From contig CP154954.1 in NCBI GenBank assembly GCA_039621445.1, positions 11,071,229-11,135,228 on the forward strand: DNA of 64,000 bases, given 5' to 3'. This document shows, piece after piece, positions 15,101 through 39,304 of this stretch. This DNA is from Euglena gracilis (taxonomy: Eukaryota). The position numbers were made by a program, and so were the translations under genes. The stretch's first letter is position 1. Each line of letters starts with the position of its first letter. Under the pieces are notes generated by a model that had not been told where the DNA came from, ran no database searches, and saw nothing but the letters and a program-made list of their open reading frames with translations.

Positions 15101-15999
15101 CGATGAGGCAGAAAGACTGGTCAAGGGAAAACTGCCAAATTTCATTTTGCATTGGGTCGCCGATGAGGAGGAAAGGAAATCAACGTGTGGACCGAAAGTC
15201 AAAATGTACCCTGGAGTGCCTGCAACCGAGGAAAACATTATTTGTGCTGTGGAACGTGTCACTGGGGAAAAGCCCTGCAAGGTTTCGAAAGTTTCACCGC
15301 TGGAGTTCGAAGTCTTTTTGCCCAACACTACGATTTGCGACAAACTGAAAGAGGTCAGTGGGAAACCAATCACAGGCACGGATAAAAGGATCAAAATTGT
15401 GGAGGAACAGCCAAAAATGGGAGTTGAAGAAATTTTCCGTTTTGTTGAGCGAAAATTGTCTTCCAGGGATTCTCAAGACATGATACACAGTTCCAGGGAG
15501 CCAAATGCATTTGGAAACCGGAGGGCCAGGTCTGCTAAGGCAGATCGGGCCAAGGGGTCCAGGACACCCTCCCCAACACGGTCAGCCAAGGGGGGCGAAA
15601 CGGTGGCAAAACCGTCCGTTGGAAAATCAGATTCACAGGTGGCAGCTCCTGCGACCAATGCAAACGTGAACCCCCCCGTACAAAATCCAGTGCCAGTGGT
15701 TCGATCACAGTCATTACCACCCCCCCCAGCAATCTCAATTTGGCAATGGGGGGGGATGGAGAAATGATTCTGGGTGGAATTCCAATGCCAATGCCAATTT
15801 TCAGGGAAATCAGTGGTGGCACTCAAATCAACAGAATTTTGATTCACAGTCTGGTGGTGGCAAAGGCAAAGGCAAAGGCAAAGGCAAAGGAAACAATTCT
15901 TGGGGGAAAGGAAACAATGGAAATGACTGGTCTAGGGGAAAGGGCCAGGACGGTGGAAAAGGCAAAGGCAAAGGGAGGGGGAAAGGAAACCGTTGCTAG
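11875..15999 (+). pseudogene. gag: Family A gag (ORF1), disrupted by stops and frameshifts
   Basis: ORF pieces 11875-12390, 12454-13341, 13356-14516 and 14652-15767 match the intact 1380-aa ORF at 27776-31918. Confidence 0.85.
12161..12301 (+). repeat. PBS (tRNA-iMet-like) within 60-bp tandem repeats of the LTR-end/PBS junction
   Basis: CGGT(C/G)AACA(T/C)GGT..CAGAGG at 12161, 12221 and 12281; CACTGAC-GTCAGTG hairpins lie between them. Confidence 0.7.
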
Positions 16000-17926
16000 G
16001 ATAGCCGGGGTGGACCGTTGGGGGCGGGAGGCGCCCCGGGCTCGCATACCCAGCCCCACACAAAGACATACACAAATCCCAGGTGGCAAGAAAAATCTCG
16101 TGTGAGTGAAAACACGATGAAAAATCTGCCATCCCAGGAGACTTCTGCGCAAGGTGTGCCCAGTGTGTCGGGTGCGTGCGTGCGTGACGTGCAAATCTGT
16201 GACTCGGCCCAAATCTGTAAAGAATCAGATCCCATAAGGGATCGTGCACAGCCTTCCGTAAAGAAAAGAGCTTTAGACATTTTTTGCGGTAAAGGCTCGG
16301 TTGGGGATTGCCTGAGAGAGCAGGGGTTTAAGGTTGTGTCAGTGGACATAAACCCCAGATTTAACCCAACCCACTGTGCAAATATTTTGGAGTGGAGATA
16401 TTGGAGGTAACCCCCCGGATATTTTCAGATCATCGCTGCGGGGGTGCCCTGTACAGAATATAGCTTGGCCAAAACATTGGGAATCAGAAATTTGGAGGGG
16501 GCAGATCGGCTGGTCAAAAAAACTTTGGAGATTGTCGAATATTTCAAACCAATATTGTGGTGGATTGAAAATCCCCGTCATGGACTTTTGCGGAAAAGAC
16601 CCTGTGTTCAAAATCTGACTTTTGTCGATGTTGACTATTGTCAGTTTTCAGATTGGGGATATCAAAAGCCCACCCGAATCTGGGGGAGCGAAAATCTGAG
16701 TAAGCTACAAAACAAACTTTGTGATGGCCAGACCTGCCCGAATTTGATTCCTGGGGGGAGGAGTCACCGAGAAAAGTTGGGAGGATATGGAATGACAGTT
16801 GGTACTCAGAAAAAATGGAGGATGCCCAAACAACTGGTGGAGTATTTGTTAACCGTGTTGGAACGAAAAAGCGGATATCGTAGGGAGGATTATGCGGTTA
16901 GGAAAGTTTGCATGGAGGAAATTGAGAAGGAATTTCGGGTTAAGGCGGAACGGGATTGTTTTGCAACCAGCCAAAATGCCAGGTGTGAAAAGTTTTACGG
17001 GGAGGATGATGATGCCATGAAAAAGGATTGGGGGGCGGAGGAAACGTTGTGGATGAACCCCCCTTGGACTTTGTGGCCTGAGGTGGCTGAAAAACTGCAA
17101 AATTCCAATTGTCGGGCAATTTGTATTTGCCCAGACTGGAATAGGAGGTGGGTGAAAAACCTGGTGGCTATGGCTGTCAAAAAGATTTATTTTCCCAAGG
17201 GGACAAAGTTGTTTGAGGCTGATGGGAGGATTTTGAGGGGTACCCGTTGGGCGGTGTGGGCCTTGTTGATCGATAGAAGGCAACTCTCCCAGGGGGGGGG
17301 GCAACCCCAGGGAAGAAAAAATTGGTTCGGCTGAAAAAAAGAATGTTGAGGGGGACAAAAACTCGGGGAGGAGCAAAGAAACTCGGGGAGGACAGACAAC
17401 TGCTGTTAAAAACCCAGATTAAGTTGGCAAATGGGGAGGAAAAAAAGGCCAGTATTTTGATTGACACGGGGGCGGAGGCAAACCTCATTCGACAAGGGTT
17501 GATAGGGACCACCTAATGTATCCTGCTAAGGACCCGTTAAGGTTTGAAACTGCCAATGGGCAAACTTTGGCGGGGGGGAGCAGATGTGCTAAGGTGAAAA
17601 TGATCCTTCAACAAAATTGGAATCAGGAAAGGGAGATTGAGTGTGTGGAATATGAGCTTGAATTTTATGAGGCAAACATCAAAGTTGATGCCATTCTTTC
17701 TTATCCATGGTTGGCGGAGGCAAAATTGGGAATTTTTCCACACCACAAGGCGTTGGTGAAAGACAGCCCCGACCTGATTTTTTTGCGGGGTGTTGAAAGA
17801 CGGAGGGGTCCACAAAAATTCAGGGATGACACAAATTTTTCAGTGGACAATGTGACTGTGGCGGATGGGTCTTCGTTTGGGTTGCAAAAACTTGGTCTCT
17901 GTTTGCCATTGGAGGGGTTGGACCAG
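16000..17926 (+). pseudogene. pol: pol N-terminus: C5-MTase (~16266-16853), Dam-like N6A-MTase (~16890-17273), aspartic protease (~17395-17720)
   Basis: LDIFCGKGS, GVPCTEYS, IENP, KPTRIWG; DCFA...WMNPPW; LIDTGA. In-frame TAA at 16408-16410 and homopolymer frameshifts. Confidence 0.88.
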
Positions 17927-18597
17927 GGATGTTGCATTGAGTTTGGATGAGATTCATGCAAAATCGTGCACCCCCCCGCACTTTGCCCCTCAAAACCGTG
18001 TTTTCGGTGGTCAAAATGCAACTTCCAGCTCACAACGCGCTTTTCACACACCAACCGAAGCATCTTCGGATGCCCGCCATCCAACTCGCAATTTTGTGCA
18101 TCAAATTCGCGATTCGTTGGATGCCAATCCTTCCAAAAGCGCAGTACGCGCACCCCTACAAGCATCTTCGGATGCGCATGTCCTACAAGCATCCACGGAT
18201 GCACATGATCATGAACATGCCTAAAATCGCGATTACAATCGCCCGTTTATACCACAACTTAAGATTCCCCCCCCTACGGGTGAATCCTTGGACGAGGAAC
18301 CGGTTTTTACTACAAAAACCGCAAATCCTCAGGTTTTACAACAAGAAATTTGCGAATCTGGACTGATTCGCGGTATGAGCCATACCCCTACCCCGGGGAT
18401 TGGCCATGAAGCGCTAATGCGAATCACGGAATTTACCGCGATTCCTCGATTTGCGGGTGAACAACGGGATTCCTACTCCCCTGGTATGTTACCACACCCC
18501 GAATCGCGGAATCACGACCCTTTACAATCCGAATCGCGGAATCGCGAAACACAACCATATAATTCGCGAAACGGCGATGTACCAGATACCCATGGTA
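17927..18597 (+). pseudogene. Internal fragment of a family-B gag
   Basis: LIRGMSHTPTPGIGHE matches LVRGMSQHPTPGIG in 41083..42903(-) and the start of 44565-44790. Confidence 0.7.
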
Positions 18598-21500
18598 CCT
18601 GTCGAGGAGCGGGATTTTCCCTGCCCCTTTGACGGAGGTTTCGGCTGTGAGGTTTTCCCATAGCCGGATGAGTACGACGTGCGTGAATCCTTGTCCCGAG
18701 GTTGATCCCCGAGAAGAGGATGCAGCACTCTGGCCGCCAGCACCACTACCGCCTTTTGGTGGGGGCTGATCACCAGATTTCGGTGTGGGCTTGCAAGGGG
18801 CGGGGCCCGGCTTTGTTTTTGCCGGGGCCTTCGGACTTCCGGTTTCCGGAGTATTCGAGGGCCGCCGTTCGGCGTCGCGCTTGCTTGTCCAGGTGCGTGG
18901 TAACGCCTGGGACGGGGGTTTTTTCCCCGAAGCCGAACGTCGTTGACCTTCAGCAGGGGTTTCCCGAGCTGAGGGTCTTCCTGCACGTTCCTCCGCGGCA
19001 CCCGTGGATTTCCCAGGGGTAGCCGTGGGGGACAGTATGGGTGCAGGCTTGGCCGGCGCACTTCGCTCTGGTTGAGCCTGTGGCGGGGGCATGGACGACC
19101 GCTCGGCCTGTTTTTCAGGCGCCGGTGTCCGTGTGCCTTGATGCTTTGGTGCAGTGGCTGTGGACGTGCGCTGAGGTGCGGGTTCATCCCGTGCCTCGGA
19201 TGGCGCTACAGGTGTTGATACAGGTTCATCCTGTACCGGCCCGGTGGGTGTTGTTTCCACTACCATTGCTGTCTGTTCGTCTTCCGTCCGTGTTGCTTCC
19301 GACACTGGCGGTGGCGCCGCCGTTGGGGGAGGTTCATCCTCCACCATGGCTGTAGTGCTAGGTGTTTCTTCCATCTGCTGGGCAGTTTCCGCCGCAGCTG
19401 TGGAAGAGCTCGCCGCAGTGCCACGTGGAGTGACAACTGCGATCAGTGACCGCAAACCACCGAGTACGCGTCCGCCCAGCGAGGTGCGCCGTTCAGGTCC
19501 CTCACCTGAAGTGGGCTCCTCCGCTGGCTCCTCTGTCGACGGGGTTTCCCCGGAAACAGGGAGTTTGAGGCGTAATACCTCAGGCGTGTGAGGTACCGTC
19601 TCCGGCGGGTTTTCCCGCGGACGGGTCGGTACCCCTGTCGTACTCAGTGAGGTGGGTAAGGTTGGAACAGGTGACATTTCACCTGCCGGCGATCCTGGGC
19701 GCTGGGCAGTTTCTGCCACAGTGTCCAGCATCAGGACAGATGGGCTACGGGTTTCCCGTGCCGGAGGTTCCGCTGGCTGAGGTTCATCCTCGGCCATTGG
19801 GGCCGTCTCCTCCTCCTCATCCGCTTCCGGAGGGGATTCCTCTGTGTGTAGTTGTGCTGCAGTACGCGGGTCTTTTCCGCTCCTGTAGCACCCTTGTGCG
19901 TCTGACAGGCGGTAAAAGCTTATACTTTCACTCCTATCAGAGTTGGGGTATGGGGGCGGCCACGACGCTCTCGCCCAGCTTCCGGGTGGAAGTTGCGGCT
20001 CGTCGTCGTCGATCAGGCAGAGGTCTTCCCACTGCTGTTGATGCATGCTGTATTCTCCTGTGTCTTCCAGGAAAGCGGGCAGCGGCAACGCATAACGAGG
20101 TTCTTTCCCCTCGTGTGCCGCGAAAAACATCTGAAAATCTTCCCAGATCAGGATCTTCCCGAACTGGGTGTCCAGGTGCTCCTGGAGGCCGATTTCAGAC
20201 TCTTCCCAGTCCGGTCGCAAGTTCATCCTGCGTTGGTCTGGATCATTGGGTCTGACGTCCAACTCGGAGTATCTCCGAGGTAACCACCTTCTGTGGATAT
20301 TCACATCAGCGGTCATGTATTCCAGGAAATATATGTAAGCCTCCAGGACGTAGGTAATCCACGCCCTATGCCAGTATTGTTGTAGCAGAAATATTTTCTG
20401 CCGGTGCTGTTTCAGCACCTTTCGGTCTTGCGTTCCGATATTAGGATTCCGGCACTGATGCAGGAGGAATCTACTGGTCGGCTGGCTGCCGGCATTCTCA
20501 GCAGTCGGAGGCGGTTTTCCGCGTTCTCCGAAACCCCAGAAGTCAACAATGTGTACTTCTTTGCAAAACTGGCATTCCAGTTTGTACCGCTGGGGGTACG
20601 CGAGGTCGACGTCCAGTACCTTGAACAGCGTGCCATGCATGCTGTCCAAGTATAACTGCAGATTGCAGGTGAACATTACCGCGGCCTGCGCCTGGAGTTT
20701 CTCCGGCAGGGGGTAATACTTCCACTGTATTCCCAGTGCTCCAACGGAATACAGGTGCATGAGGATTTCCTTCAGCTGTGCGACGAATGTTCGTCGTCTT
20801 CACAAGTATTCATACAATCGATATACGTCAGACCGTTTCGGTCGGTAAAAATGCCGAAATTAGGGCAGGGGTATCCCAACCAGAACCACAGCTCCCAGAA
20901 ACCGGACATCCGGTCCAGGACAACTTCACTCGAATGAGGGTATCCCTCAAAAGCGTGAAGTTCGGAACTGTAGAAAAAACGTTTGCAGTGATCGCTCATA
21001 CGATTCTGCACCACTTCGAGCGCCGCATCCGGTGGTCGGTGGATCACGTTGCCCGCTTTCGTGAACTTTTGGCGATCTTCGGCGATTTTCGGCCAGATCT
21101 CCTCAAGTTACTTGAAGACCGAGGCAACGTCATTGTCCTTCGTTTTCGAATGATCGGCGGCTTTTCCGCCTTTTCCTGCTGGGGGTCCGGCAGATTTTCC
21201 GCCTTTGCCTGGAGATGGCCAAGCGGCTTTTCCGCCTTTGCCAGGTGGGGCTTTTCCACCTTTCTCCTGGCCTTTTCCCTTTCCCTTACCATTGCCTTTA
21301 CCTTTACCCTTACCCTTTGTGTTAGACAGCCATTCGAATGTTGCCCAGTAATCCCAGTATTCTGGGTCTTCTATTGTAAACACAGGGTAAGTCACGGTTT
21401 CTGTGCTGGGCGTTCGAGCAAATTCCTGCTCAGCGTCACCACGGTTCGAGTAAACCGGCGCGACCGGGGGTGGTCGGGTTTCCCGACGTGCTCGTCGCTG

Positions 21501-22779
21501 GCGGAGCTTCCTCCTCAGCGTCGACGTGCATCGCCGCAGGCGGATTTTCCGACCTCTGCGAGCGGCGCTGTGGCTGCGGCGTCGGATTTTCCGGGCCGCG
21601 GTCACGCTTGCCGGCGGCAGAGCTCGTGGGTCGTGCTGATGTCGCTTCCGCCACAGCAACTTCCTGCTGTCGTGCTGGTTGACTTGATCGTGATGGAGCT
21701 GGGACTCCTGTGAGAGCCGACACTACAGCATCATACTGCTGGCGCTCTTCTCTCGTCATTTCCGCCCGGGCAGGTTATCCCTGGCCAGCGGAAACAGGGG
21801 GGCGACGTGCGATTTGTCGTTGGATCGTCACAGCATATTCCTACTGTTGACGCTCCTCCTCGGACTCGAACGGCCGGCCAGTCCACGGGTTAACGGGTTC
21901 ATCCCGAACCTGAGGGACTGGCACCGCACGACGCGCTGCCGCGGCTTCCCGCGGATGAGCGCTTCGGGCGGTGTCAGACGTCGGGGGAGGGTTTCCCCCC
22001 ACAGGACGTCGTGGCACAGGGTCAGGTATGGTTGGGTGGGGTTGAGGTGGATACACGTACTGATCCTGGGGCATTGGTGCCTCCTGGGGGTAATCCCCAG
22101 GGACGGCGTACTGAGGTACATGCTCCTGCGCAGGGTAATCCCGCCGGGGCATGAGCTCAGGGGATCGAAAAATACTTTCTTTCACGCGTGGGTGTTCACT
22201 CCGGACAGGTGCTTCCACTGTCCTTTCCTCGGGTAATCCGTGGGAGTGAGCGCGAAAGTGTGCGGTGTAAGTGCCAACTGGTGGTACCTGCCGTGCTACA
22301 TGTGGCGGGACTTCCACGCCCAGGTCACGCATGGTAATGTTTGCCGCGAATCCCGACGTGTCCGGGTCGGTGTAATACACCAAACCAGCCATCGTCGCCT
22401 GGGCGCACATACACCACAGGGATGGAGTGGTATTCGCTATGGTCAAAATTTTACGCCAGTGATCATCCCACAATGCCTGGGTGAGGTGGTCTGGTGCCGG
22501 GTTTGCGCTCATACGCATAACCAGGTTCATCGTCTCCGCCGTGCGGTGGATCATCACACCCGCATACGGTGGGAGGCGACGAGAGCCTGATGGCTGAGAT
22601 GGCCGCGCTTCCGCGGACATCCGCGTCATCCTGCTACTGCTGCTTGCTTCAGGGTTTCCCTGAGCCGCAGTCCGTGCAGGTGGCTGCGTACCGTATCGGT
22701 ACGCATACTGGTCAGTTTGATGGTGAGTGGTGGGGTGGTAAGGCGGGCCTCCGCCTGACTCCCTTCCACCGGGCAGCAT
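18598..22779 (-). pseudogene. Family B accessory ORF3 (unknown function), copy 1, fragmented
   Basis: ORFs 21841-22779, 21108-21659, 20772-21047 and 18433-20760 are homologous to 51700-55920 and 57670-64000. Confidence 0.75.
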
Positions 22780-22951
22780 GATACCCCCAGAGGTCGGTAC
22801 GGTTGGATGGTTGTGTTGTTGGTTGTAAGTTGGTAAGGGTATCCGCTTGAGTATTATTTGCTAAAAAGTCTGCGGAAAGAAAGAATGATAAGAATCAATT
22901 ATAAAAAGAAGATAAAACAACATGGGTTTCCCATGCGGTCTCAAAAACTTG

Positions 22952-25189
22952 TCATGGAAACATCAATGTTATGCTTCTTGTTCCACAGCTTCCAATCCTG
23001 CTGGACATACCCAACAAAACTGGTCGTTGGCTCCAAGTGTCCTCCTCGGGCCCATACCCTTTCCAGCGGACCTTCCAAAGGCGCATACCTTTGTCGATTT
23101 TGTTATCGATAATTATATCGACTACAAAGTCGTCCGTCTCAGGTAATCTGGAACGGGGTTTGAAGTGCAAACACGGGATGGGTTTCCCATCCGGTGGCGA
23201 CAGGTATGGCCTGAAGTCGTCCATATGAACGCCCTTAACACCATTCGGTAATGCGACCTTGTAACGCCTGCTGGTACCTAGTCTTTCTAGGATTTCACAG
23301 GGGCCGAGCCAGAGGAGGTCCAGCTTGGAAGACTGCATGCGAGTACGGCTATTCCGTACCCACACGCGGTCACCGGGACCATACACAGGTGACTTGAAAT
23401 TCTGCAAAAACGATTTCCGTTTAGTTCCTTGAACTTCAGTGACTCGCTTCTGGACTGCAGAACGTAGATTTTCTACTTCCGCAAACCAGGTCTCGCAACT
23501 GACACTCGTTCGGGCGGGTCTCTTCGAAGGGACATCCCCTATGGCCGGAGGGTCCCGTCCGAAAACTAATTTATAGGGGGAGTGAGGCAAAACCAACCCT
23601 GGTAAGGTATTGATATAAAACAAAGACCATGGTGGCACTGATATCCAGTTGCTGCACGAGTCAGCCAGTGAAAGGCGAAGCATATTCACGACGGATTTGA
23701 CGGCTGCCTCGGCTCTACCACTGCCTTTGGGTCGGTATACAATGGAAAAATGTTGCTCGATTCCGAGTAAACCGCACAAAGTGGTGAAAAACCTTGAAGA
23801 AATCAAATGGTCTTGATCACTCACGATTTCATTCAGTAAACCCATTAAGCAAATACATCTCTCCTAAAATATAACCGCCAAATTTTGAGCAGTCAACCCT
23901 GACTTCTGGCATGGAATGGCTACAATGTACCCACTCAGCCTGCAGACGACAACAAAAACGTAATCGTAAATTTTTTCGTCCGTTCCTTTGCACAGTTCTA
24001 ATTCCGGAAAATCCATGCAGAGGGATGTAAAAATGTCAGGGGGTACGGGGAAAAAATCCATCGTACCAGGGGGGGTACCTCTGCGGGGTTTTACCGCTTG
24101 ACAAATTTGACACCGTTGCGCTATTCGCAAACAGCGTGAGTAAAGCTCTTTCTCGCGCAGGGTTGTGCAATACCTGCGGCCCACCAACGAAAGAAGTTTG
24201 GGGGCCCAAGGGTGACCGTGGTTGTGATAGCACAAAATAACGTCATCAACCAGGTCCTGGGGGATACAATATTTGTAACCCGATTCATTGCGAAAAACCA
24301 ACCGTAAATGTGAAAGAGTGTAATTCTCCAGCACTTCGCCACTACGAAGTCTGGTGACTATGGTGTCATACACAGTATCACGACTATAATCCCATTCGCG
24401 AAAGAACAGTGGGGAAGGGGACTCTGTGCGTGTAATACGCCGGGGTCCGAACGTGCTTCCACGTCGGCGCCTCCCGCGCACTGGTGCGACCAGGAGTAGT
24501 TGTGAAACGGGAAAAGAATCCAAAAGATTATCCGCAGCGTCGTTTCGACGTGCGTATTCGTCAGCTTCCTGACTTCCATGAAAAGTCGCGTGTCCCTCAT
24601 CCGGGTTCCCAGGGTAATACCAAGGGGCCCGACTGAGCGGATCCGCTACTTTTTGTGTGTGACCAGGGGTATAAATAACTACAAGGTTGAATTGACTCAA
24701 GAACTCATACCATCTGCATCGCCTTCCGACCGATGACATGGCCTTGTTCAAATCCTCGGTGTACCAGTGTTGGGGATTCTCATGGTCGGTCTTGACGAGG
24801 ATCTGGACGAGGCTGCTGGGAACCCAGCTTCGGAATTTCTGGAGTATAAGCACGACTGCGTAGGTTTCCTTCTCTCGTATAGTCCACTTGACTTGATCTT
24901 TACCGTCGTCGCCCTGTAGCTTTCTGCTGAAGAAAGCCACAGGCCGGAGTTCATTCGCCGCGTTTTGCTGGCTAAGAACTCCGCCAACAGCGTAATCGCT
25001 GCTGTCGACTTCCAACACGTATGGTTTGCACGGGTCCGCGATTTCGAGGACAACATTCTCCAAAAGCAAAACCTTGATTTTCTCAAGGGCCTCGCGCATG
25101 TGGTCATCCCAAATGACTTTGGTGTTGTGATCAGCCCGGTTTTTGAGCTGTTTGGGGAGGGGCACCGCGATTTTTGCGAAGTCCTTCAT
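22952..25189 (-). pseudogene. pol: Family B RNase H, integrase and chromodomain
   Basis: LEVDSSDYAVGG, EKETYA, TDH, ADPLSR; HNHGH...CQIC; LCMDF, VSDQD, GRAE; WLGP; WKVRWKGYGPEEDTW. Confidence 0.9.
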
Positions 25190-26080
25190 ATATCGCGTAA
25201 TATTAAGCTAATCCCAAAAATCCTTTGATGTGTGTAATCGTTTTGATTACCTCAGGGGTCCATTTCCTGATGGCTTCGAGTTTACTCTGAGCGGCTTTCC
25301 GCTGTCAATTGCTGAGAATGTGACCGCAAAATTTAATAAGTATCCGAAACAAATGCATTTTCGCGCCTTCGCGAAAAGCACATGTTTTTGAAAAGCAGTT
25401 AATACCGCGCAAACATGGTGGACGTGTGTGACGAGAATGAGAATATCTTCGCTCGATTTTGCGGATGGTGGCGGTGTTCCCACCAGCACATCATCAATAT
25501 ACACAATGGCAAACGGTAAATCGCGTAGAACCCATTGTATCATGCGTTGAAACATGGCTGGGCAATTCTTAACACCCATGGGGAGCACCGTCCATTGGTA
25601 CACACCCTTGGATGTCACGAATGCCGTGTATGGTTAGGAGTCAGGGTGCAAGTGCATTTGGTGAAAACCGTCCTCCAGATCGAAAATTGACCACAACCGG
25701 TTTTCCGATTGTTTGGTGATCAAATCCTCGATCAGGGGGAGCGGGAAGGGATCATCCCTTGTCTGGGAGTTCAGGCACCGGTAATCCAGCACCAGTCTCC
25801 ATTTCATCTGACCTGAGGGGTCTGGAGGTTTAGGAACAACAAATGCCTGGGATGCCCACTCGCTTTTCGAGGGTACGATCCACTTGCGCCGGATAAGCTT
25901 CTCAATCATGTCATTGAGAGCTTGTTCGCGTTCTCCCGAACAACGAAAGACTTTCCGGTGCATCGGTTTAGCTCCTTCCTTAAGCTCGGTCTTACAAACA
26001 CCGAACGGACCGCGTATCGCGGGGTCGATGTCGCACGCGTATACTGGATTTTCCAGCACACCGTGAAATTCGCGGGTGAT
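25190..26080 (-). pseudogene. pol: Family B reverse transcriptase
   Basis: WRLVLDYRCLN, IFDLEDGFHQ, LPMGVKNCP, VYIDDVLV; interrupted by stops and frameshifts. Confidence 0.92.
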
Positions 26081-26199
26081 CCGCGAACAGAATTCGGCTG
26101 CCTTGGGATGCTGCCCTGCACTCTCAATGACTGCGGAAACCACCAGGGTATCCCTGGGGCTACCGAGCTTCCTCGGCACCGCGAATTCGGACATTTCGA

Positions 26200-26600
26200 A
26201 TGCATCGAAGAAACATACGCGAAAAATGATTTCTTGCAAGGGTGGTAATATTTTACCACAAAAATCTTCAAAAATTGGTACATTAGTGGGTAAATCCCAC
26301 CAATGAAAACATACACACGATAGTTGGGTGAACCATTCCGCTTCCGGAATGATGGGTATGAGAATAACTCCACGGGCTTCATCCCGCAGAGTTTTGTCAA
26401 CCGCACATTCGATAAGTTTTGAGGGAGGGTGCATCCATAACACCGTATCACCCCAAAATTTATCAAATGCGTTGGAGTGTTGTGACCAATGACGTGGCAA
26501 ACGGGCATGTGCATTGGATGAAAAGGCATCGATTTCCAATGCCAAATCAAATGAATCAGCCAATGTCGCGATTTTGGAAAACCGTTGTTCCAAAATGCGA
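26200..26600 (-). pseudogene. Dam-like N6-adenine MTase domain between PR and RT (catalytic motif reads HPPS)
   Basis: LEIDAFSS...NAFDKFW...LWMHPPS...GVILIP...EWF is colinear with the NPPF/NPPW domains at 59732-60427 and 32810-33193. Confidence 0.8.
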
Positions 26601-27466
26601 TATTGACCAAAATTTAAAGCATTCCATACGCGTTTCGCGTATACATGCACCCGATTCCCGGGTTGGGGTGACGAAACACAATGAATGGATCCACAAACAT
26701 GCGGGCAGTCTTCCACTTCCTCAAGGGTTAACCCAGGGGAGTTTGGACAGGTTGGGGTTTTCTCCATTCCGCATCAAATCCGTACCAAGTTTGATTGCGA
26801 TTAAAATTAGGAATGACGCTTTTCGCGTTTCTAAACGAGGCTAATCCGCGTTGTTGGAGTGCTCGGTGTATCTCCGCGCATTGCGGGCTACAACCAAGTG
26901 TATCATGGCGTGTGTATTCCGTCTTCGGAATTGTGATTAGTGTCGGATTTTGAACTAGACATCCACAATCGAAATCCGATTGGGTGGATATTCTCCTGCA
27001 GTGCACACATTGGAAGGACGTGTGTTGGTGTGACAGGTGTGCGTGTAAGTGGGTGTCGATGGCATTAGCCGGTGAGTCTTGTACAGGTGTTCCTGGGTTC
27101 GGCACAATTGGTGGGAATCGGCGTGGTGGTGTAGCTGGGCGACTACTCGACACCGTGATCCCTGCAGGCCTTTGGGCTTTCGTCTTGTAACCCAGTGGAA
27201 CGGTGTGGGTACCGCTACCCGCTTGCCCTACCTCATTTGGAACGCATGTAGGTGTGTCATTGGGTAGGAGTGAGGCTTTCTACGTAGCCCGAGTGTGGAA
27301 AACGGTTGTTGGTGTGGTGGATAACGGTGTTGCCACTGTGTGTAACGGTGTTGGAAAACTGGTGGTCATCATAGTGGATGTCAACGGTGATGGTGGTTTG
27401 GGTGGCATTGCAGTGTTGGGTGCTGTGCGCAAACCGTGGGAGTCGTAATCCACAACCAATCGGTAC

Positions 27467-27956
27467 TGTTCACCGGCCCCACCCCCTGTGCGCCGCCGGT
27501 CGCCCCTGCGACCGGCGAGTCCCGGTGGGCCGAGGGCCCGGGGGGGTTCTCGCCGTCGTGGATAACCACCGACAGCAGGGGGGTGGGTGTTTCCGGGGTG
27601 GGGCCTGCGCTTTCTCGGGAAATTGGTGGGCTCAAGCCAACCCCCATTTTTTCACCCAGGTGATTTCCCCAACCCCAGCCGGCGCGTAGGATCGTTTTTT
27701 CAAAGTTTTCCGAAATTTTAGTGAAAAACGATCCTACGCGCCGGCTGGGGTTGGGGAAATCACCTGGGTGAAAAAATGGGGGTTGGCTTGAGCCCACCAA
27801 TTCCCCGAGAAAGCGCAGGCCCCACCCCGGAAACACCCACCCCCCTGCTGTCGGTGGTTATCCACGACGGCGAGAACCCCCCCGGGCCCTCGGCCCACCG
27901 GGACTCGCCGGTCGCAGGGGCGACCGGCGGCGCACAGGGGGTGGGGCCGGTGAACA
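27467..27956. repeat. ~230-bp-arm inverted repeat made of two head-to-head copies of the LTR 3' (U5) end
   Basis: 27467-~27698 is the reverse complement of ~27724-27956, with one mismatch seen and a short spacer. Confidence 0.9.
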
Positions 27957-30900
27957 TGGTTAGCAGAGGTCGGCTCACTGACTTCGTCAGTGAGGTTTTT
28001 TCAGATTCGGTGAACGTTGTTGCAGAGATTTGTTCCGCTGCCTCTGCCAGCAGAATCAGTGCAAAGTTTTCAGATTCGGCTGACATCACAAGCAAAGGTT
28101 GTTTCACTGACCCAGTCAGTGAAAATTTTTCAGAGACGGTCAACACGGTCACAGAGGATTGTTCTGTTGGCTGTGTCAACAGAATGGTACACGAGGGCAG
28201 TTTCACCAACTCAGTTGTCTGTGAATATTCAGAAGAATCTGCAGAAATCTGCTCGTTTTCAGGTCAATCTGTCCGAGTTTCAGATTGTGGTGAAAATTTT
28301 CTGAGATCTGTGGCAGAAATCTATTTTCAGAACGAAAAGGAAACTGAGTTTTCTGCAGCCCAGTTTTCAGAACCTGTGGCATCATTGCAAATCGTGACGG
28401 AATCTGTGGCAGAAAACAATTTTCAGGCTGCAGAAACTTTATCGTCTTCAGAATTTTCAGAAACGACACAGGAATCAGAATCTGATTCTGATTCGGGGAG
28501 GGGGGCAATTACACGCATAAGGCCCATCACGGTGGCAGGGCCAGAAAATTTTCAGCTGGTTCCACTGCACAGCAGTGATGAGGAACCAGACCCCCCAGCT
28601 TACGAAAGTGAAACAGAGGAAGAAAAACAGGCTGAAAACGCAATAATTCAGGAAATGGTTATGCAAAGAATGAAAGCGGCTGGCATGTGGCCAGTAAATT
28701 TTTCAGGTTTTCAGCAAATTTCTGTGTCGTCACGAGACAGCAGCCCAGGGCCAGAACAAAAAATGTTGTGTTTAACAGCCCAGCCAGAACCATTGCTGTT
28801 AACACAGAGTTCAGAAACGCAGTCAGCACAGCCAGCTGCAGCCCAGCTGCAGGTTTTTCAGCCAGCCCAGCAGTTTTCGGCTGAGTCATCTGTTTCAGCA
28901 ATCATGGAGCCAGCCCAGATGACTTCACAGGTTTTTCACCCAGCCCAGCAGTTTTCGGCTGGGTCATCTGTCCCAGCAATCACGGGGCCAGCCCAGATGA
29001 CTTCACAGGTTTTTCAGCCAGCCCAGCAGTTTTCGGCTGAGTCATCTGTTCCAGCAATCATGGGGCCAGCCCAGATGCATGGGCAGGGTTTTCAGCCAGA
29101 GTTAACAATGTCTTCAAACACAGGCCCAGCCCAGGTTTTTCAGCCAATTCAGCCAGATTTTCCACAGACCCAGTCACAGAATTTACAGCCAAACACCAGT
29201 TTTTCTGCAGAAACTGGGTCCGAAAACCCTGAAAATCAGCATGATGTGGAAATGGAATCGGGCTATGGCCAATCTGATGATGATTGGAACAATTGGGGTG
29301 AAGAAATCAGTTGCAAAATTGAATGTTTACATGGCAGACTTTTGGTGCAGGAAGGAAAAAATCCTGAGAAAACGGCTGAAAATCTGGTGGGGGAGGCAGA
29401 AAACAGGCTAAATCGGGCATTGGCCATGTCACATGGGCAGACATTGAATCTGGTCAACGAGGCATTGGGCATGCATGATGGGCGAATGGCTGATCACATT
29501 GCCATGGTGAAACGTGAAATTCAGGCTGAACTGAGTGCAACTGTAAACGACTTGCTTTTGCAGTTTCAGCAAAATGGTGAAATGGTGCAAAATCTGGCCC
29601 AATGCCAAAGGCATTTGTTGGGTGTGGAAATGGAACGGCAGTTTGCTGAAAAAGTGAAGAAAGTGGAGGATGGAGTAAACACGTTTTTTGAGGCCCAGGT
29701 TGAGGGGTTGAGAAAAAATGAGAGGGATTTTTCTCAGAAGCTGTCGTTTTTGGAAAAATCTGTGGGGGAGATGCACGTGGTGGTGCAACAAGTGGGGGAG
29801 AAGGAAAAACAGCAGGGAATTGCTGTTAATCAGGTCAAATCTGCAGTCGGTGAGCTAAGATCTAGTCTGGAGGGACGCTTTGGAGTCATTTTTCAGCAAT
29901 GCAAAGGTTTGGGGGAGACTGAGTGTGCCAAATTTCAGGCACAGGCTGAGAAATTGAAGGAATTTTCACAGTCCCTGGAGCGAGAGAGCAAAGCTCTGAA
30001 TGATCGTTTGGGGAGGTTGGAGAATTTTCTGGGTCGGAAAGATTTTCCCATTGAGAAAGTCTGTGACCTGATTAACAAGAGTGAGGAAACAATTCGGTTG
30101 GAGGTGCAAAGGGAGTTGGGGCTGCAAACGAGAAGGAATTTGGAGGTCATTATCAGTGAAATGTTGCAGGAAAAGTTGAGGCTAAGTGAAAGGGAGGGGC
30201 AGTTTGAAAAAGTGCGGGCTGAAATGGAAAACTCGATGAAACAACAGGTTGGAGTTTTACTGCAACAGCAGTGCGTTGAACTTCAAAAAGAACAGCAGGA
30301 ACGGAAAAAATTGCAACAAAAGCTGGATTTATTTCAGGCTGAGTTTTTGGTGATGAAAAATCAGCAAGCTGAATCTGCCAAATCTGCGACAGTGGATCTG
30401 ACAAAGGAAACGAGAGAAAAATCAGCTGGAAATTCAGAAATCGAGGAGTTTGATCTTTTTGGTTACAACGATTTCCCTGCGATCGAGAAAAATCCGGTTG
30501 AAATTGAAGACTATGAATACGCTGAACCAGGATCACATGCGACACATGTCAGGCAGGTTTGTGCACGACCTGTGGGGGCAGTACCTGCAGGTGCAGGGCT
30601 GGTTTCATCGAATGCAGTGGCAACACATCAATTGATGAAAAACCTGGTAGCTCCAAATTTTTCTGGACAGCCAAAAGACTGGTCGTCCTTTGTGAGGGAT
30701 TGGGATCAATATTTCAGGACGGTGGTTATTTTACAAAATGGAAATGTGTCTGATCCACTCAAACTTCGGCTTTTTGCAATGACTCTGGACGACACGAATC
30801 AGAAGGAATTGCAATTCCGACTGGAATTGAACGGAAAAACATCTTTCGAGGAGGAATTTGACAGGCTTGAAGGGAAATATGCTGGAACTCAATCCGAGTG

Positions 30901-31918
30901 TGCCAGAAAAAAATGGTATGATGTGAACCTCGTGAACCAAGGGAAAATTACCGTACAGGAATGGCGAGATTTTGTCATAAATTTCAGAATAGCCTGGAGA
31001 CAGGTGAAAAGCGCCACTGACGATGAGGCAGAAAGACTGGTCAAGGGAAAACTGCCAAATTTCATTTTGCATTGGGTCGCCGATGAGGAGGAAAGGAAAT
31101 CAACGTGTGGACCGAAAGTCAAAATGTACCCTGGAGTGCCTGCAACCGAGGAAAACATTATTTGTGCTGTGGAACGTGTCACTGGGGAAAAGCCCTGCAA
31201 GGTTTCGAAAGTTTCACCGCTGGAGTTCGAAGTCTTTTTGCCCAACACTACGATTTGCGACAAACTGAAGGAGGTCAGTGGGAAACCAATCACAGGCACG
31301 GATAAAAGGATCAAAATTGTGGAGGAACAGCCAAAAATGGGAGTTGAAGAAATTTTCCGTTTTGTTGAGCGAAAATTGTCTTCCAGGAATTCTCAAGACA
31401 TGATACACAGTTCCAGGGAGCCAAATGCATTTGGAAACCAGAGGGCCAGGTCTGCTAGGGCAGATCGGGCCAAGGGGTCCAGGACACCCTCCCCAGCACG
31501 GTCAGCAAAGGGGGGCGAAGCGGTGGCAAAACCGTCCGTTGGAAAATCAGATTCACAGGTGGCAGCCCCTGCGACCAATGCAAACATGAACCCCCCCGTG
31601 CAAAATCCAGTGCCAGTGGTTCGATCACAGTCATTGCCACCCCCCCAGCAATCTCAATTTGGCAATCGGGGGGGATGGAGAAATGATTCTGCGTGGAATT
31701 CCAATGCCAATGCCAATTTTCAGGGAAATCAGTGGTGGCACTCAAATCAACAGAATTTTGATTCACAGTCTGGTGGTGGCAAAGGCAAAGGCAAAGGAAA
31801 GGGCAAAGGAAACAATTCTTGGGGGAAAGGAAACAATGGAAATGACTGGTCTAGGGGAAAGGGCCAGGATGGTGGAAAAGGCAAAGGAAAAGGAAGGGGG
31901 AAAGGAAACCGTTGCTAG
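27776..31918 (+). CDS. gag: Family A Gag/ORF1, 1380 aa: acidic N-term, 26-aa Gln-rich repeats, long coiled coil, capsid-like region, GK/N/W-rich tail
   Basis: Intact ORF in the gag position with an FSGQPKDWSSFVRDW capsid-like motif. No CCHC knuckle; the true start codon is uncertain. Confidence 0.82.
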   Translation: MGVGLSPPIPRESAGPTPETPTPLLSVVIHDGENPPGPSAHRDSPVAGATGGAQGVGPVNMVSRGRLTDFVSEVFSDSVNVVAEICSAASASRISAKFSDSADITSKGCFTDPVSENFSETVNTVTEDCSVGCVNRMVHEGSFTNSVVCEYSEESAEICSFSGQSVRVSDCGENFLRSVAEIYFQNEKETEFSAAQFSEPVASLQIVTESVAENNFQAAETLSSSEFSETTQESESDSDSGRGAITRIRPITVAGPENFQLVPLHSSDEEPDPPAYESETEEEKQAENAIIQEMVMQRMKAAGMWPVNFSGFQQISVSSRDSSPGPEQKMLCLTAQPEPLLLTQSSETQSAQPAAAQLQVFQPAQQFSAESSVSAIMEPAQMTSQVFHPAQQFSAGSSVPAITGPAQMTSQVFQPAQQFSAESSVPAIMGPAQMHGQGFQPELTMSSNTGPAQVFQPIQPDFPQTQSQNLQPNTSFSAETGSENPENQHDVEMESGYGQSDDDWNNWGEEISCKIECLHGRLLVQEGKNPEKTAENLVGEAENRLNRALAMSHGQTLNLVNEALGMHDGRMADHIAMVKREIQAELSATVNDLLLQFQQNGEMVQNLAQCQRHLLGVEMERQFAEKVKKVEDGVNTFFEAQVEGLRKNERDFSQKLSFLEKSVGEMHVVVQQVGEKEKQQGIAVNQVKSAVGELRSSLEGRFGVIFQQCKGLGETECAKFQAQAEKLKEFSQSLERESKALNDRLGRLENFLGRKDFPIEKVCDLINKSEETIRLEVQRELGLQTRRNLEVIISEMLQEKLRLSEREGQFEKVRAEMENSMKQQVGVLLQQQCVELQKEQQERKKLQQKLDLFQAEFLVMKNQQAESAKSATVDLTKETREKSAGNSEIEEFDLFGYNDFPAIEKNPVEIEDYEYAEPGSHATHVRQVCARPVGAVPAGAGLVSSNAVATHQLMKNLVAPNFSGQPKDWSSFVRDWDQYFRTVVILQNGNVSDPLKLRLFAMTLDDTNQKELQFRLELNGKTSFEEEFDRLEGKYAGTQSECARKKWYDVNLVNQGKITVQEWRDFVINFRIAWRQVKSATDDEAERLVKGKLPNFILHWVADEEERKSTCGPKVKMYPGVPATEENIICAVERVTGEKPCKVSKVSPLEFEVFLPNTTICDKLKEVSGKPITGTDKRIKIVEEQPKMGVEEIFRFVERKLSSRNSQDMIHSSREPNAFGNQRARSARADRAKGSRTPSPARSAKGGEAVAKPSVGKSDSQVAAPATNANMNPPVQNPVPVVRSQSLPPPQQSQFGNRGGWRNDSAWNSNANANFQGNQWWHSNQQNFDSQSGGGKGKGKGKGKGNNSWGKGNNGNDWSRGKGQDGGKGKGKGRGKGNRC
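28850..29100 (+). repeat. 78-bp coding tandem repeat (QVFQPAQQFSAxSSVxAIxGPAQMTS)
   Basis: Three full units here versus two in copy 1 (12994-13149). Confidence 0.85.
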
Positions 31919-32185
31919 GATAGCCGGGGTGGACCGTTGGGGGCGGGAGCCGCCCCGGGCTCGCATACCCAGCCCCACACAAAGACATACACAACTCCCA
32001 GGTGGCAAGAAAAATCTCGTGTGAGTGAAAACACGATGAAAAATCTGCCATCCAAGGAGACTTCTGTGCAAGGTGTGTCCAATGTGTCGGGTGCGTGCGT
32101 GCGTGACGTGCAAATCTGTGACTCGGCCCAAATCTGTAAAAAATCAGATCTCGTAAGAGATCGTGCACAGCCTTCCGTAAAGAAA

Positions 32186-32773
32186 AGAGCTTTAGACCTT
32201 TTTTGCGGTAAAGGCTCGGTTGGGGATTGCCTGAGAGAGCAGGGGTTTAAAGTGATTTCAGTGGATATAAACCCCAGATTTAACCCAACCCACTGTGCAA
32301 ATATTTTGGAGTGGAGATATTGGAGGTACCCCCCCGGATATTTTCAGATCATCGCTGCGGGGGTGCCCTGTACAGAATATAGCTTGGCCAAAACATTGGG
32401 AGTCAGAAATTTGGAGGGGGCAGATCGGCTGGTCAAAAAAACTTTGGAGATTGTCGAATATTTCAAACCAAAGTTGTGGTGGATTGAAAATCCCCGTCAT
32501 GGACTTTTACGCAAAAGACCCTGTGTTCAAAATCTGACTTTTGTCGATTGTGACTAGTGTCAGTTTTCAGATTGGGGATATCAAAAGCCCACCCGAATCT
32601 GGGGGAGCGAAAATCTGAGCAAGCTACAAAACAAACTTTGTGATGGCCAGACCTGCCCGAATTTGATTCCTGGGGGGAGGAGTCACCGAGAAAAGTTGGG
32701 AGGATATGGAATGACAGTTGGCACCCAGAAAAAATGGAGGATGCCCAAACAACTGGTGGAGTATTTGTTAACC
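32186..32773 (+). other. C5-cytosine DNA methyltransferase domain
   Basis: Motif I LDLFCGKGS, II-III VDIN..CANIL, IV GVPCTEYS (catalytic PC), VI IENP, VIII-like QKPTRIW, X-like MPKQLV. Confidence 0.88.
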
Positions 32774-32809
32774 GTGTTGGAACGAAAAAGCGGATATCGT
32801 AGGGAGGAT

Positions 32810-33193
32810 TATGCTGTTAGGAAAGTTTGTATGGAGGAAATTGAGAAGGAATTTCGGGTTAAGGCGGAACGGGATTGTTTTGCAACCAGCCAAAATACCA
32901 GGTGTGAAAAGTTTTACGGGGAGGATGATGATGCCATGAAAAAGGATTGGGGGGCGGAGGAAACGTTGTGGATGAACCCCCCCTGGACTTTGTGGCCTGA
33001 GGTGGCTGAAAAATTGCAAAATTCCAATTGTCGGGCGATTTGCATATGCCCAGACTGGAATAGGAGGTGGGTGAAAAATCTGGTGGAGATGGCTGTCAAA
33101 AAGATTTATCTTCCCAAGGGGACAAAGTTGTTTGAGGCTGATGGGAGGATTTTGAGGGGTACCCGTTGGGGGGTGTGGGCCTTGTTGATTGAT
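32810..33193 (+). other. Dam-like N6-adenine DNA methyltransferase domain
   Basis: DCFATSQN..FY...DAMKKDW....WMNPPW..ICICPDW: the phage-Dam/DIRS-MT type pattern. Confidence 0.85.
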
Positions 33194-36100
33194 AGAAGGC
33201 AACCCTCCCAGGGGGGGGCAGCCCCAGGGAAGAAAAAATTGGTGCGGCTGAAAAAAAGAATGTTGAGGGGGACAAAAACTCGGGGAGGATCGAAGAAACT
33301 TGGGGAGGACAGACAACTGCTGTTAAAAACCCAGATTAAGTTGGCAAATGGGGAGGAAAAAACGGTTAGAATTTTGATTGACACGGGAGCTGAAGCAAAC
33401 CTCATTCGACAAGGGTTGATAGGGGACCACCTAATGTATCCTGCTAAGGACCCGTTAAGGTTTGAAACTGCCAATGGGCAAACTTTGGCGGGGGGGGAGC
33501 AGATGTGCTAAGGTGAAAATGATCCTACAACAAAATTGGAATGAGGAAAGGGAAATTGAGAGGGTGGAATATGAGGTTGAATTTTATGAGGCAAATATCA
33601 AAGTGGATGCAATTCTTTCTTATCCATGGTTGGCAGAAGCAAAACTGGGAATTTTTCCACACCACAAGGCGTTGGTAAAAGACAGCCCCGACCTGATTTT
33701 TTTGCGGGGTGTTGAAAGACGGAGGGGTCCGCAAAAATTCAGGGATGACACAAATTTTTCAGTGGACAATGTGACTGTGGCGGACGGGTCTTCGTTTGGG
33801 TTGCAAAAATTTGGTCTTTGTTTGCCTTTGGAGGGGTTGGACCAGGAATTGCAATTTTTGAGCGATGAGGACCTGGGGGAGGTTGCCACAAATTTGGAGG
33901 GAAGTGACCCCCCAGTGCAAGTTATCAACCGAATGATAATTGCAAGGGAGGGGGAGGACAAAAAAGAGGAGGAAAGGGTAGTCAAGTTGAGGGAACAAGT
34001 TTTGGAAGATTACAGGGGGACGGTATTTCGGTCATCGCCATTTCCAGACCCCCCCGAAAGAGGACAATATGGTTATGCATACATACCTTTGAAGGAGGGG
34101 GCGAAGCCAACCAGACAGAAGCCTTTTTTCATGCACGGTGAGCGGAAAGAGGCACTTGAAAAAATCACCCAAGACTGGCTCGACAAAAAATACATTGAGC
34201 CAGCCACAGCCAAAAATTCTGAATGGCTGTCCCAGACTTTTCCAGTTCCAAAAAAATCCAACGATTTTCCTTGGAGGGGGGTGGTGGACCTCAGGGGCCC
34301 AAACAGCCAAACAAGGCGATGCAACTACCCCCTACCCAAAATTGAAGACATTTTGGTCAAACATGGTGCAAACCAAATGTTTTCGATTATCGATTTGAAG
34401 CAAGCTTTTCACCAACAACCCTTACACCCAGAAAGTCGACCCATAACGTGTTGTTTTACCCCCAAAGGCATTTTTCAGTGGAGGGTGAACGTAATGGGTT
34501 TGACAAATGCCCCCCAGCAATTTCAGCAAATGATCGATGACCGTTTGACACCAGTAAGGGATATCGCCACAGGGTACATAGACGACATACTGGTGGGGAC
34601 AACGGTCGGGGAAGGGGAGGACCTGGTGGGGGCACACGAAAAAGATTGGAGGGTGTTGGAGGTGCTGAAAACAGAACTTTTGGTGGCTGATGAATTCAAA
34701 GCCAAACTTTTCGTTGAGGAGGTCGAATTTTGTGGACAGATTTTAGGAAACGGGACTAGGAGGCCTGCACCGGGTAAGTTACGAGCGATCGAAAAGTGGG
34801 AGGTTCCAAAAACAATTACGGCTTTGAGAGCCTTTTTGGGATTCACAAATTATTACAATGCATACATTCACATGTATGCGGAAGTAGCTGCCCGGCTGCA
34901 AGACAAATTGAAAGTCCCCAGGGAGGTGGGAAAGAAAGGAAGTCGAAAACCTGTGGAATTTGATGGGGAGGATTTAAAAGCTTTTGAGGAGCTGAAAAAA
35001 AGGTTGTGTTCGGGCCTAATGTTGCAACGGGTAGACCCAGATAAACCCTTTGTGCTAAGGGTTGATGCCAGTGGGTACGCCGTGGGGGCAACGTTAGAAC
35101 AAATGAAGGAGGGGGGAGGAAGACCCACAGCCCAGGATGTGATTGAGAAAAAAACTGTGCCAGTGGCTTTTATGTCTCGAAAATTGACCGAGGGGCAAAG
35201 AAAATGGACCCCCAGGGAGTTGGAGACGTACGCCATAATTTTGGCACTACAAAAATGGGAAAGTTGGATTGGATTGCAACCCGTTTTGGTTTTAACCGAC
35301 CACCAAAGTTTGGAGTCTTGGACAAGGGAAGTCCTAGACACCCCCAGTGGTCCGGTTGGGAGGAGGGCGAGATGGCATCAAATTTTCTCCAAGTATGATT
35401 TGACGGTGGGATATATCCCGGGTAAAGAAAATACCATAGCGGATATCCTTAGTCGGTGGGCATACCCAGCTTCACAGGCCTTAAGGGATATAAGTAAGCA
35501 CGGGTCAGCCGAAGACAAGGATGAAATGGAAAATTTTATCCGGGAGGAAAAAGAAGAGGAAAAACAGTGTTTGGAGATAAGAATCAAAAACCAGCCCAAT
35601 TTACGTAATGCCTGGATACGGGGGGTGACAACCCGTAGTGGCAAAAACGTAACCCCTGAGGAGGAAAAAGGAGAGTGCACAAGGAGGGGAACCGAGGGTG
35701 GGGTAGACCCAGGAGGAAAAGACACCCCTGTGGACACCCACTCACAAGGGCCCAGGAAAGAAAAGAAACGAGTTCATTTTTGGGATGAGAAAGTGGGGGG
35801 GGAGACGACCCCTGTCCCGGGGACGGCTGAAAGTTCGAGGGGGGACACTCGTATGGAAGTGGGGGACGCCCTGCCAAGTACGACCCCTAAGGATATTAAG
35901 CCCGTATGGGAGCGTGATTGGGGGGAAGCATATTCCCGATGCCCCACATGGAAAGAAAAATGGGAGGCTACCAAAGGTGGTTCAGTTTGGCCCAAAAGCT
36001 ATAAAGTCTTGAACGGTCAACTGTTTTTCGAGGAAAAGTTGTGTGTGCCTGAAAGTTTTCAACACTTGGTGATTCAAGAAAATCACGAGTTTTTGGGGCA

Positions 36101-38175: not shown

Positions 38176-38442
38176 TCTTGGTGAAGACCCTCATTCCACC
38201 CGTGAGAAGCGGGGGGAGGGGGGGGGGGGGGCAGCCAAATATCCATTGGTTGGTGAACCGAATCTTTCCCAAGGGTTCGAAGGCACTTGAAAGCCATAGT
38301 CCCTGAATTTTGTTTCCCGTTTGGTTGGTTCAAGGGATCATGTGTGGGACATAGGCTTTGGGTGAAGGAGTGCCAATTGGAGGAGTTCCCCCCTCTTTGG
38401 TGAGGGGGGGGGGGCGAGTTTTTGGTGTCCGACTAAGGTCGC

Positions 38443-38453
38443 AAGGGAGGGGG
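38443..38453 (+). promoter_or_regulatory. Polypurine tract
   Basis: AAGGGAGGGGG immediately before the TGT of the 3' LTR. Confidence 0.85.
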
Positions 38454-39300: not shown

Positions 39301-39304
39301 GTAC

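Follow-up and report, generated by a model that had tools for sequence, protein, structure and literature searches.

A Dam-like domain with a non-canonical catalytic motif between protease and reverse transcriptase in a high-copy Ty3/gypsy retrotransposon family of Euglena gracilis

The 64-kb stretch of Euglena gracilis contig CP154954.1 analyzed here (the window) consists of eukaryotic retroelements nested in one another, based on stop-to-stop open reading frames (ORFs) and Pfam matches. Its minus strand carries an element of family B, the main subject of this study, and the plus strand carries two elements of family A (A2 and the truncated A1), a second, truncated family-B-like copy (B') and a mini-element. 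The features of these elements, with strand in brackets, are as follows.

16819-17319 (+), Dam-like domain of the truncated element A1, the second family A copy (PF05869, 7.1e-11, 42.5 bits)
18380-18600, candidate LTR remnant of family B, pairing with 44565-44785 (93% over 221 bp)
22952-23863 (-), integrase C-terminal SH3-like domain and chromodomain (Chromo 1.2e-6; SH3_Tf2-1 1.7e-6)
23864-25207 (-), RNase H and integrase zinc-binding domain (RT_RNaseH_2 3.8e-23; Integrase_H2C2 4.7e-5)
25247-25834 (-), RVT_1 in the same frame, broken by an in-frame stop (Pfam E=3.6e-5 and 8.6e-12)
25634-26773 (-), ORF of 379 aa with the family B Dam-like domain and the N-terminal part of the reverse transcriptase, closing at an in-frame stop
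26420-26431 (-), motif IV position of the Dam-like domain, H-P-P-S (CAC CCT CCC TCA), directly after the predicted strand VLWM
26774-27468 (-), linker between protease and Dam-like domain, about 230 aa, in broken frames
26929-27015 (-), Cys-rich motif in the linker, C-x2-C ... C-x-C then C-x2-C (B' counterpart at 48796-48885 (+))
about 27467-39306 (+), A2, 11.8 kb: gag, C5-DNMT, Dam-like domain, protease, reverse transcriptase, RNase H, integrase, chromodomain
32738-33247 (+), family A Dam-like domain, NPPW, between C5-DNMT and protease (PF05869, 5.4e-11, 42.9 bits)
39312-39690 (-), probable family B aspartic protease, D-T-G then ILGYPF, frameshifted
40218-41141 (-), family B gag with CCHC zinc knuckle (zf-CCHC 1.6e-5)
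47616-49220 (+), B', in which protease and linker are contiguous
59801-60223 (+), stand-alone Dam-like domain, NPPF, in the 1.67-kb mini-element

Family B is a chromodomain Ty3/gypsy family with the order gag, protease (PR), Cys-rich linker, Dam-like domain, reverse transcriptase (RT), RNase H (RH), integrase (INT) and chromodomain. The full Ty3/gypsy set of PR, RT, RNase H, integrase and chromodomain is present, the PR being weak by Pfam (caulimovirus-type Peptidase_A3, E=0.04, and 0.0025 in B'). The minus-strand pol runs in one frame from 26773 to 22952 (1,274 codons) with in-frame stops at codons 380, 509, 522 and 970. RVT_1 starts at residue 314 of the ORF that carries the Dam-like domain, and this sharing of one ORF by a Dam domain and RVT_1 is one arrangement by which DAM-LTR elements are recognized.

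The family B protease lies 12 kb from the domain because A2 is nested between the PR and the Dam linker. This nesting follows from two observations. B' (47616-48652) runs through the A2 site unbroken, its positions 48652-48332 matching 27133-27452 and 48321-47616 matching 39311-40003, and contigs from all four sequencing runs that reach 27468 carry on with the sequence of 39307 onward. The hexamer GTACTG is found at both A2 junctions. B' itself stops 24 aa into the Dam region, short of the motif; its PR-region segment is also present as an inverted duplicate (45935-46565 (+) vs 47616-48321 (+), 78% identity). The ORF at 26728-27279 (-) was considered as a protease and rejected, having neither a Pfam match nor a D-T/S-G motif.

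The placement of the Dam-like domain between PR and RT, already proposed in the first-pass annotation of this DNA, is borne out by uninterrupted database proteins of the same order. In the 923-aa protein P0002, residues 2-190 align to the PR segment (39841-39312), 355-383 to the linker (27015-26929) and 478-890 to the Dam-like domain and RT (26635-25454, 58.8% identity over 413 aa). P0003, P0005, P0006, P0008 and P0019 align in the same way, and the family B protease segment aligns to the N-termini of all six proteins. The Cys-rich motif of the linker is common to P0002, P0004, P0005 and P0008, with residues 355-383 of P0002 and 333-368 of P0005 aligning, and may be a small zinc-binding module.

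The window copy of family B is dead, with four internal stops, a frameshifted PR and linker, and a nested 11.8-kb element. A sensitive blastn search for longer family B LTRs found only the 221-bp direct repeat. Downstream of the chromodomain lie two Pro/Thr/Glu-rich ORFs of 788 and 339 aa without a Pfam match (18433-20799 (-) and 21841-22860 (-)). Contigs related to family B are present in the RNA-labelled runs X15-X17, which is not proof of transcription. Word-indexed protein searches gave at most a single 35-aa overlap, with P0094, and Rfam gave no match within the 64-kb window.

The other Dam-like domains of the window belong to two further lineages. A2 and A1 are about 96% identical in DNA over 4.9 kb (11905-17927 in A1, by self-comparison), and their Dam-like domains (32738-33247 and 16819-17319), both before the PR, are 94% identical. 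The first-pass annotation distinguished three contexts for such domains, before PR (assigned to two families, A and C), between PR and RT, and stand-alone. The three contexts stand, but the pre-PR copies belong to one family, so that the window contains three Dam lineages rather than four. The low mutual identity reported for the contexts is likewise seen here, at 21-29% among the family A, family B and mini-element domains.

Several structural details of these elements were also recorded. Family A (A2 and A1, the latter at 11318-17927 (+)) has a 1,397-aa gag ORF and a C5 cytosine methyltransferase with motifs DLFCGKG, GVPCTEYS and ENP (Pfam DNA_methylase, E=2.9e-5) in addition to the NPPW Dam-like domain. 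The full LTR of about 850 bp is found at 11318-12163 and 38454-39304 and is absent from the 5' side of A2, where 27467-27956 forms a palindrome with a perfect center, in which about 245 bp of the LTR end, in inverted orientation, abut the direct copy at 97% identity. The mini-element (59424-61096 (+)) is bounded by 245-bp direct terminal repeats (59428-59669 and 60850-61094, 96% identical), and its only coding sequences are a 263-aa ORF with the NPPF Dam-like domain and a 149-aa ORF. The first 1.3 kb of the window is an inverted paralogue of the mini-element flanks with an empty site at 688|691, and because these paralogous flanks lack the insertion the mini-element is a true mobile insertion.

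The family B Dam-like domain occupies 26192-26608 (-), residues 56-194 of the ORF 25634-26773, as delimited with a profile of database matches. Against Pfam PF05869 (Dam) this ORF scores E=1.8e-4 and 21.7 bits over residues 71-150, spanning profile positions 22-105 of 169 and falling short of the gathering score of 28.1 bits, and independent support for homology was therefore sought. By tblastn, the family A domain recovers family B at 26572-26246 (-) (E=3.6e-6, 24.5% over 110 aa) and the family B domain recovers the mini-element copy (E=7.2e-8). A four-way alignment reveals a common framework over the whole domain, comprising D-x-F, W, LW-x-[N/H]-P-P, a conserved Pro and F-E. A phmmer search of 1.84 billion representatives with the 175-aa family B domain returned 306 at E<=1e-3 (78 at <=1e-10 and nine at <=1e-30). 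PF05869 was recognized at E<=1e-3 in 52 of the 66 different representatives scanned with Pfam (27/31 and 26/36 in two scans with P0034 in common), several of which exceed the gathering score (P0015, P0016, P0018 and P0019, 31.6-37.9 bits). Atlas look-alike clusters of the domain are all eukaryotic. Together with the fold model described below, these searches confirm the segment as a true but diverged PF05869 "Dam"-like domain, and the first-pass placement of such a domain at 26200-26600 falls within its limits. Phage and bacterial PF05869 N6-adenine methyltransferases share the framework D-x-F ... W ... LW-x-[N]PP-x with family B, which differs from them in its sub-threshold score, its lack of the Asn and the aromatic residue, and its setting as a polyprotein domain of a eukaryotic retroelement.

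In N6-adenine methyltransferases the (D/N)PP(Y/F/W) loop binds the flipped adenine, with the N6 amino group held by the Asn or Asp and by the backbone carbonyl of the first Pro, and with the aromatic residue stacking on the base. Family B has no such tetrad after strand 4, reading LWM-H-P-P-S in the window copy (and HPPP in most copies) where canonical relatives read N-P-P-F/W/Y; the codons at 26420-26431 agree with the first-pass reading of HPPS in place of NPPF/W. Family B is a high-copy family, with 13,076 contig pieces of run X1 aligning to 25600-27470 at a likeness of at least 80% (2,692 at 99% or more, 4,202 at 95-99%, 4,154 at 90-95% and 2,028 below 90%, giving 6,894 at 95% or more). 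At 26422 a Pro-giving letter accounts for 966,779 of 970,537 summed depth in 91 contigs of run X1 and is present in all contigs of three other sequencing runs, and Ser at the fourth motif position is private to the window copy among the sequencing-run contigs. For the His codon, no majority change appears among the differences listed for run contigs on 25600-27470, and His as the family-majority state rests on this absence together with the two nearest database fragments spanning the motif, P0014 (HPPP, 63% identical) and P0126 (HPPQ). The first-pass annotation had asked whether the family consensus would restore NPPx; the majority form, HPPP, retains the two prolines and lacks the Asn.

The non-canonical state extends beyond the family. 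In a tree of 108 Dam domains (a quick IQ-TREE run with many unresolved forks and no prokaryotic outgroup), family B sits in a 12-row clade (SH-aLRT 97) whose members read NPPI, NPPV, NPPL, HPPF, YPPI, NPHY and HPMF, alongside HPPS of family B itself, and groups neighboring this clade read CPPF, NPPH and NPPQ. The domains of family A (NPPW) and the mini-element (NPPF) are far from family B in the Dam tree. A separate 13-row clade (support 98) reads mostly L-W-x-H-P-P-[D/N/E]-x-x-W and includes P0050, P0052, P0056, P0069, P0082, P0086, P0089, P0096 and P0123. Pfam recognized none of the six members of this clade that were scanned; P0086 runs on into RT, indicating that the domains of this clade are retroelement-borne too. 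In an alignment of 143 domains, 97 have N at the first motif position, 27 have H, 12 have C and seven have another residue; canonical NPP[FWY] is found in 62. The 108 tree rows comprise 51 canonical and 57 non-canonical motifs, with at least eight state changes on the tree. These tallies are biased toward the neighborhood of family B because the sample consists of the best 150 matches to it plus the window's own copies, and may include decayed copies.

We consider the odd motif a feature of the lineage rather than of copy decay, since other copies read Pro, His is not listed as changed and the nearest clusters are non-canonical as well. As the non-canonical motif is common to the family and its nearest clusters, this very successful family proliferated while lacking both the Asn and the aromatic residue. 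Around the motif, L72, W73, P76 and P77 are near-invariant in the domain alignment. Family B and P0002 are 80-83% identical in RT and 44% identical in the Dam-like domain, indicating much weaker constraint on the latter.

An AlphaFold2 model of the family B domain built from a 40-row alignment (pLDDT 89.5, pTM 0.83) has the class I SAM-methyltransferase (Rossmann) fold, and its strong structural matches are all Rossmann-fold methyltransferases. The top six PDB matches with Foldseek are all PCIF1/CAPAM (best E=1.4e-5, TMq 0.58; next 6.6e-3). PCIF1 also ranks first of 48,161 chains in a wide VIA-align search (Z 10.2, rmsd 3.4, 130 residues aligned), level with PH1948 (Z 10.0). Next come METTL5, KsgA/Erm, M.BseCI, E. 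coli Dam and T4 Dam (Z 8.3), and M.TaqI. By this model, PCIF1/CAPAM (PDB 6IRV-6IS0) would be the closest solved fold to the family B domain. The two are only 10-12% identical with no sequence-profile match, and PCIF1/CAPAM, unlike the family B domain, is a large enzyme of the cell that also contains helical and WW domains. PCIF1_WW had no Pfam match in family B or in any of the 66 relatives scanned. Searches of PDB sequences with the family A domain, and of all PDB sequences with the 40-row profile, gave no match, and the top rank of PCIF1 may therefore reflect the absence of a solved PF05869 member.

The position of the domain within Pol varies among database relatives. The Dam domain is followed by RVT_1 some 130-190 residues on in P0002, P0022, P0030, P0033, P0038, P0051, P0060, P0085, P0133 and P0144, and PR precedes Dam in P0088. 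The PR-Dam-RT slot is thus common and no peculiarity of this host. The order RT-RH-Dam-INT is found in P0097, P0114 and P0087. Two further proteins, P0108 and P0131, have integrase, Dam and RVT_2, a copia-type reverse transcriptase. The first-pass annotation read the several contexts as repeated capture or shuffling and proposed comparing Dam and RT trees. For eight elements with both domains, family B and P0002 group with P0033 and P0051 in the Dam tree (96/95) and with P0085, P0030 and P0060 in the RT tree (69/78 with eight rows, 91/89 with ten). AU tests on the eight elements did not reject the alternative grouping (p=0.106 on the RT data, p=0.144 on the Dam data). Congruence is accordingly not rejected and we do not claim independent capture from the difference between the trees; the data show neither repeated capture nor a single co-diverging acquisition.

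Dam-carrying LTR elements with the domain in several slots, including dual DNMT and Dam elements, are known from Fernandez-Moreno et al. (bioRxiv 10.64898/2026.05.21.726589, May 2026), who hypothesize that retroelements repeatedly acquire Dam domains and exploit host 6mA chromatin. In the available text they argue for one ancestral eukaryotic acquisition followed by repeated transfer from DIRS to LTR elements. They report that almost all DAMs keep the Asn-Pro-Pro triplet, that DAM-LTR insertions are enriched for 6mA in three species, and that expressing eukaryotic DAMs in dam-deficient E. coli gave no gain of 6mA. The text names Ty3/gypsy-like, DIRS and L1-like RTs and leaves copia unmentioned, and the words "protease", "inactive" and "PCIF1" are absent from it, figures and supplements aside. 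Family B resembles their DAM-LTRs in having a PF05869-type domain inside a Ty3/gypsy-like pol, often chromodomain-bearing; DAM-LTRs are described in several slots and lineages, with domains proposed to be exchanged between element classes. In contrast to the mostly Asn-Pro-Pro DAM-LTRs described there, family B and its clade read H/N/Y-PP followed by a non-aromatic residue.

The same preprint describes EpiLTRs, elements with DAM, DNMT and chromodomain, in Euglena gracilis and Cymbomonas tetramitiformis. As presented in its available text, they resemble nested A2 and A1, which combine C5-DNMT, Dam-like domain, PR, RT, RH, INT and chromodomain. In the Cymbomonas EpiLTR the 3' end of pol carries the DNMT, whereas the DNMT of family A lies upstream of Dam and PR. 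This likeness belongs to family A; no DNMT occurs in family B. The DIRS1 methyltransferase domain was judged likely inactive and PCIF1-derived by Iyer et al. 2016 (PMC4738411), who cite Poulter and Goodwin 2005, and theirs was the only report in the literature searched to link PCIF1 to methyltransferase domains of retrotransposons. Like that of family B, the DIRS1-type domain they describe is a small, methyltransferase-like domain in a retroelement polyprotein, and the fold search suggests a relation to PCIF1 for the family B domain as well. DIRS elements, however, have a tyrosine recombinase and carry the domain after RT/RNase H, whereas family B combines a DDE-type integrase region with a chromodomain and has the domain between PR and RT.

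We think it rather likely that family B carries a diverged retroelement Dam/DIRS-type domain in Pol that has kept the methyltransferase fold, has lost adenine methylation or performs it very poorly, and is retained non-catalytically. Both side chains are missing in family B, and at least the aromatic one in its sisters, from which we infer a dead or strongly impaired domain, and family B probably no longer methylates adenine. In the proposed mechanism, the domain would be translated as part of the Pol polyprotein with a lineage tetrad that varies from H-P-P-S in the window copy and H-P-P-P in the majority of copies to N/H/Y-P-P-aliphatic in the nearest clusters, and would be unable, or barely able, to methylate adenine. 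It may then have been retained under relaxed constraint for nucleic-acid, cap or cofactor binding, for partner recruitment or for polyprotein architecture, and the family would have reached its very high copy number in this catalytically impaired state. Such inactivity agrees with the available parts of Iyer et al. and with the negative E. coli assays of Fernandez-Moreno et al.

Against inactivity, hydrogen bonding of the target amino group by the His is conceivable in principle, and a loop that is still constrained, with intact long ORFs in relatives and the near-invariant residues around the motif, could equally signify changed catalytic activity. Family B might instead encode a DNA adenine methyltransferase that works with a variant motif, marking cDNA or new insertions with 6mA for permissive chromatin, a reading in line with the first-pass proposal and with the model of Fernandez-Moreno et al. 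The retained fold and most framework residues, the in-frame position of the domain in long intact relative ORFs and the great success of the family speak for such an enzyme, as does the higher 6mA on DAM-LTR insertions in the available text of Fernandez-Moreno et al., an enrichment that would fit active enzymes in other lineages. We nevertheless regard it as unlikely, given that Asn and aromatic residue are both replaced family-wide, that the nearest clusters vary freely at both motif positions and that the Dam-like domain diverges far faster than RT (44% vs 80-83%); in the preprint's assays even canonical eukaryotic DAMs gave no 6mA in E. coli. The proposal of the first-pass annotation that these elements are selected to write adenine methylation is thus supported only in part, domain and slot being as described, while the family B motif is non-canonical, congruence is not rejected and the slot is common.

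Methylation of RNA instead of DNA is a further alternative. PCIF1 itself has the motif NPPF, and canonical copies of the retroelement domain read NPPF/W. With PCIF1/CAPAM the nearest solved structure by two aligners, and with the derivation of the DIRS1 domain from PCIF1 given in the available part of Iyer et al., the family B domain might methylate or bind the cap-adjacent adenosine of its own transcript. We consider this quite unlikely, however, because the sequence matches PF05869 with PCIF1_WW absent from every Pfam scan, the profile search of the PDB is empty so that the rank of PCIF1 may reflect the lack of a solved PF05869 member, other methyltransferases tie with PCIF1 in VIA-align (10.2 vs 10.0), and the residues needed for the cap reaction are missing from family B too. 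Decay of a single dead copy, with a canonical functional form elsewhere in the family, would account for the Ser found in the window copy alone and is in keeping with the four stops and frameshifts, at least one of the stops falling where nearly all other copies read another letter. It is very unlikely, and as a sufficient explanation of HPPS it is largely refuted, in view of the Pro rather than an aromatic residue at the fourth position of other copies, the lack of a majority difference at the His codon among those listed, the independent HPPP and HPPQ fragments and the sister clusters that likewise lack the aromatic residue. A chance likeness of a segment unrelated to methyltransferases could appeal only to the sub-threshold Pfam score (21.7 vs 28.1 bits) and can be practically dismissed, being refuted by the chain of phmmer and Pfam homologues that reaches above-threshold PF05869 members, the alignment of the whole domain with those of family A and the mini-element, and the confident AlphaFold model of a methyltransferase fold with its Foldseek matches.

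Dam-carrying Ty3/gypsy elements in several architectures, and the combination of DAM, DNMT and chromodomain, are already described in the available text of Fernandez-Moreno et al. To these the present study adds a non-canonical motif that runs through the lineage of a high-copy family, contrasting with Asn-Pro-Pro in almost all DAMs, a Dam-like domain that evolves faster than RT and, from the structural model, PCIF1 as the apparent nearest solved fold. Iyer et al. and Fernandez-Moreno et al. disagree on origin and substrate, and the structural link to PCIF1 reopens the questions of whether RNA or DNA is the substrate and whether the domain stems from cellular PCIF1 or from prokaryotic Dam.

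In the current model, Dam-carrying retrotransposons write 6mA and sit in permissive chromatin. It is possible, and we offer this tentatively, that a Pol-embedded sub-lineage comprising the B clade and the CPPF and HPP[D/N/E] groups gave up the catalytic tetrad while the domain was kept in frame in intact, proliferative LTR elements, its selected job being non-catalytic. If true, that job would be to bind element RNA, cap or cDNA, or to recruit a host adenine methyltransferase, and any excess of 6mA on DAM-LTRs would be the work of the host and not of the element. A high-copy family B with H-P-P-P/S beside family A with NPPW and a C5-DNMT in the same genome would provide a natural test of whether catalysis is needed.
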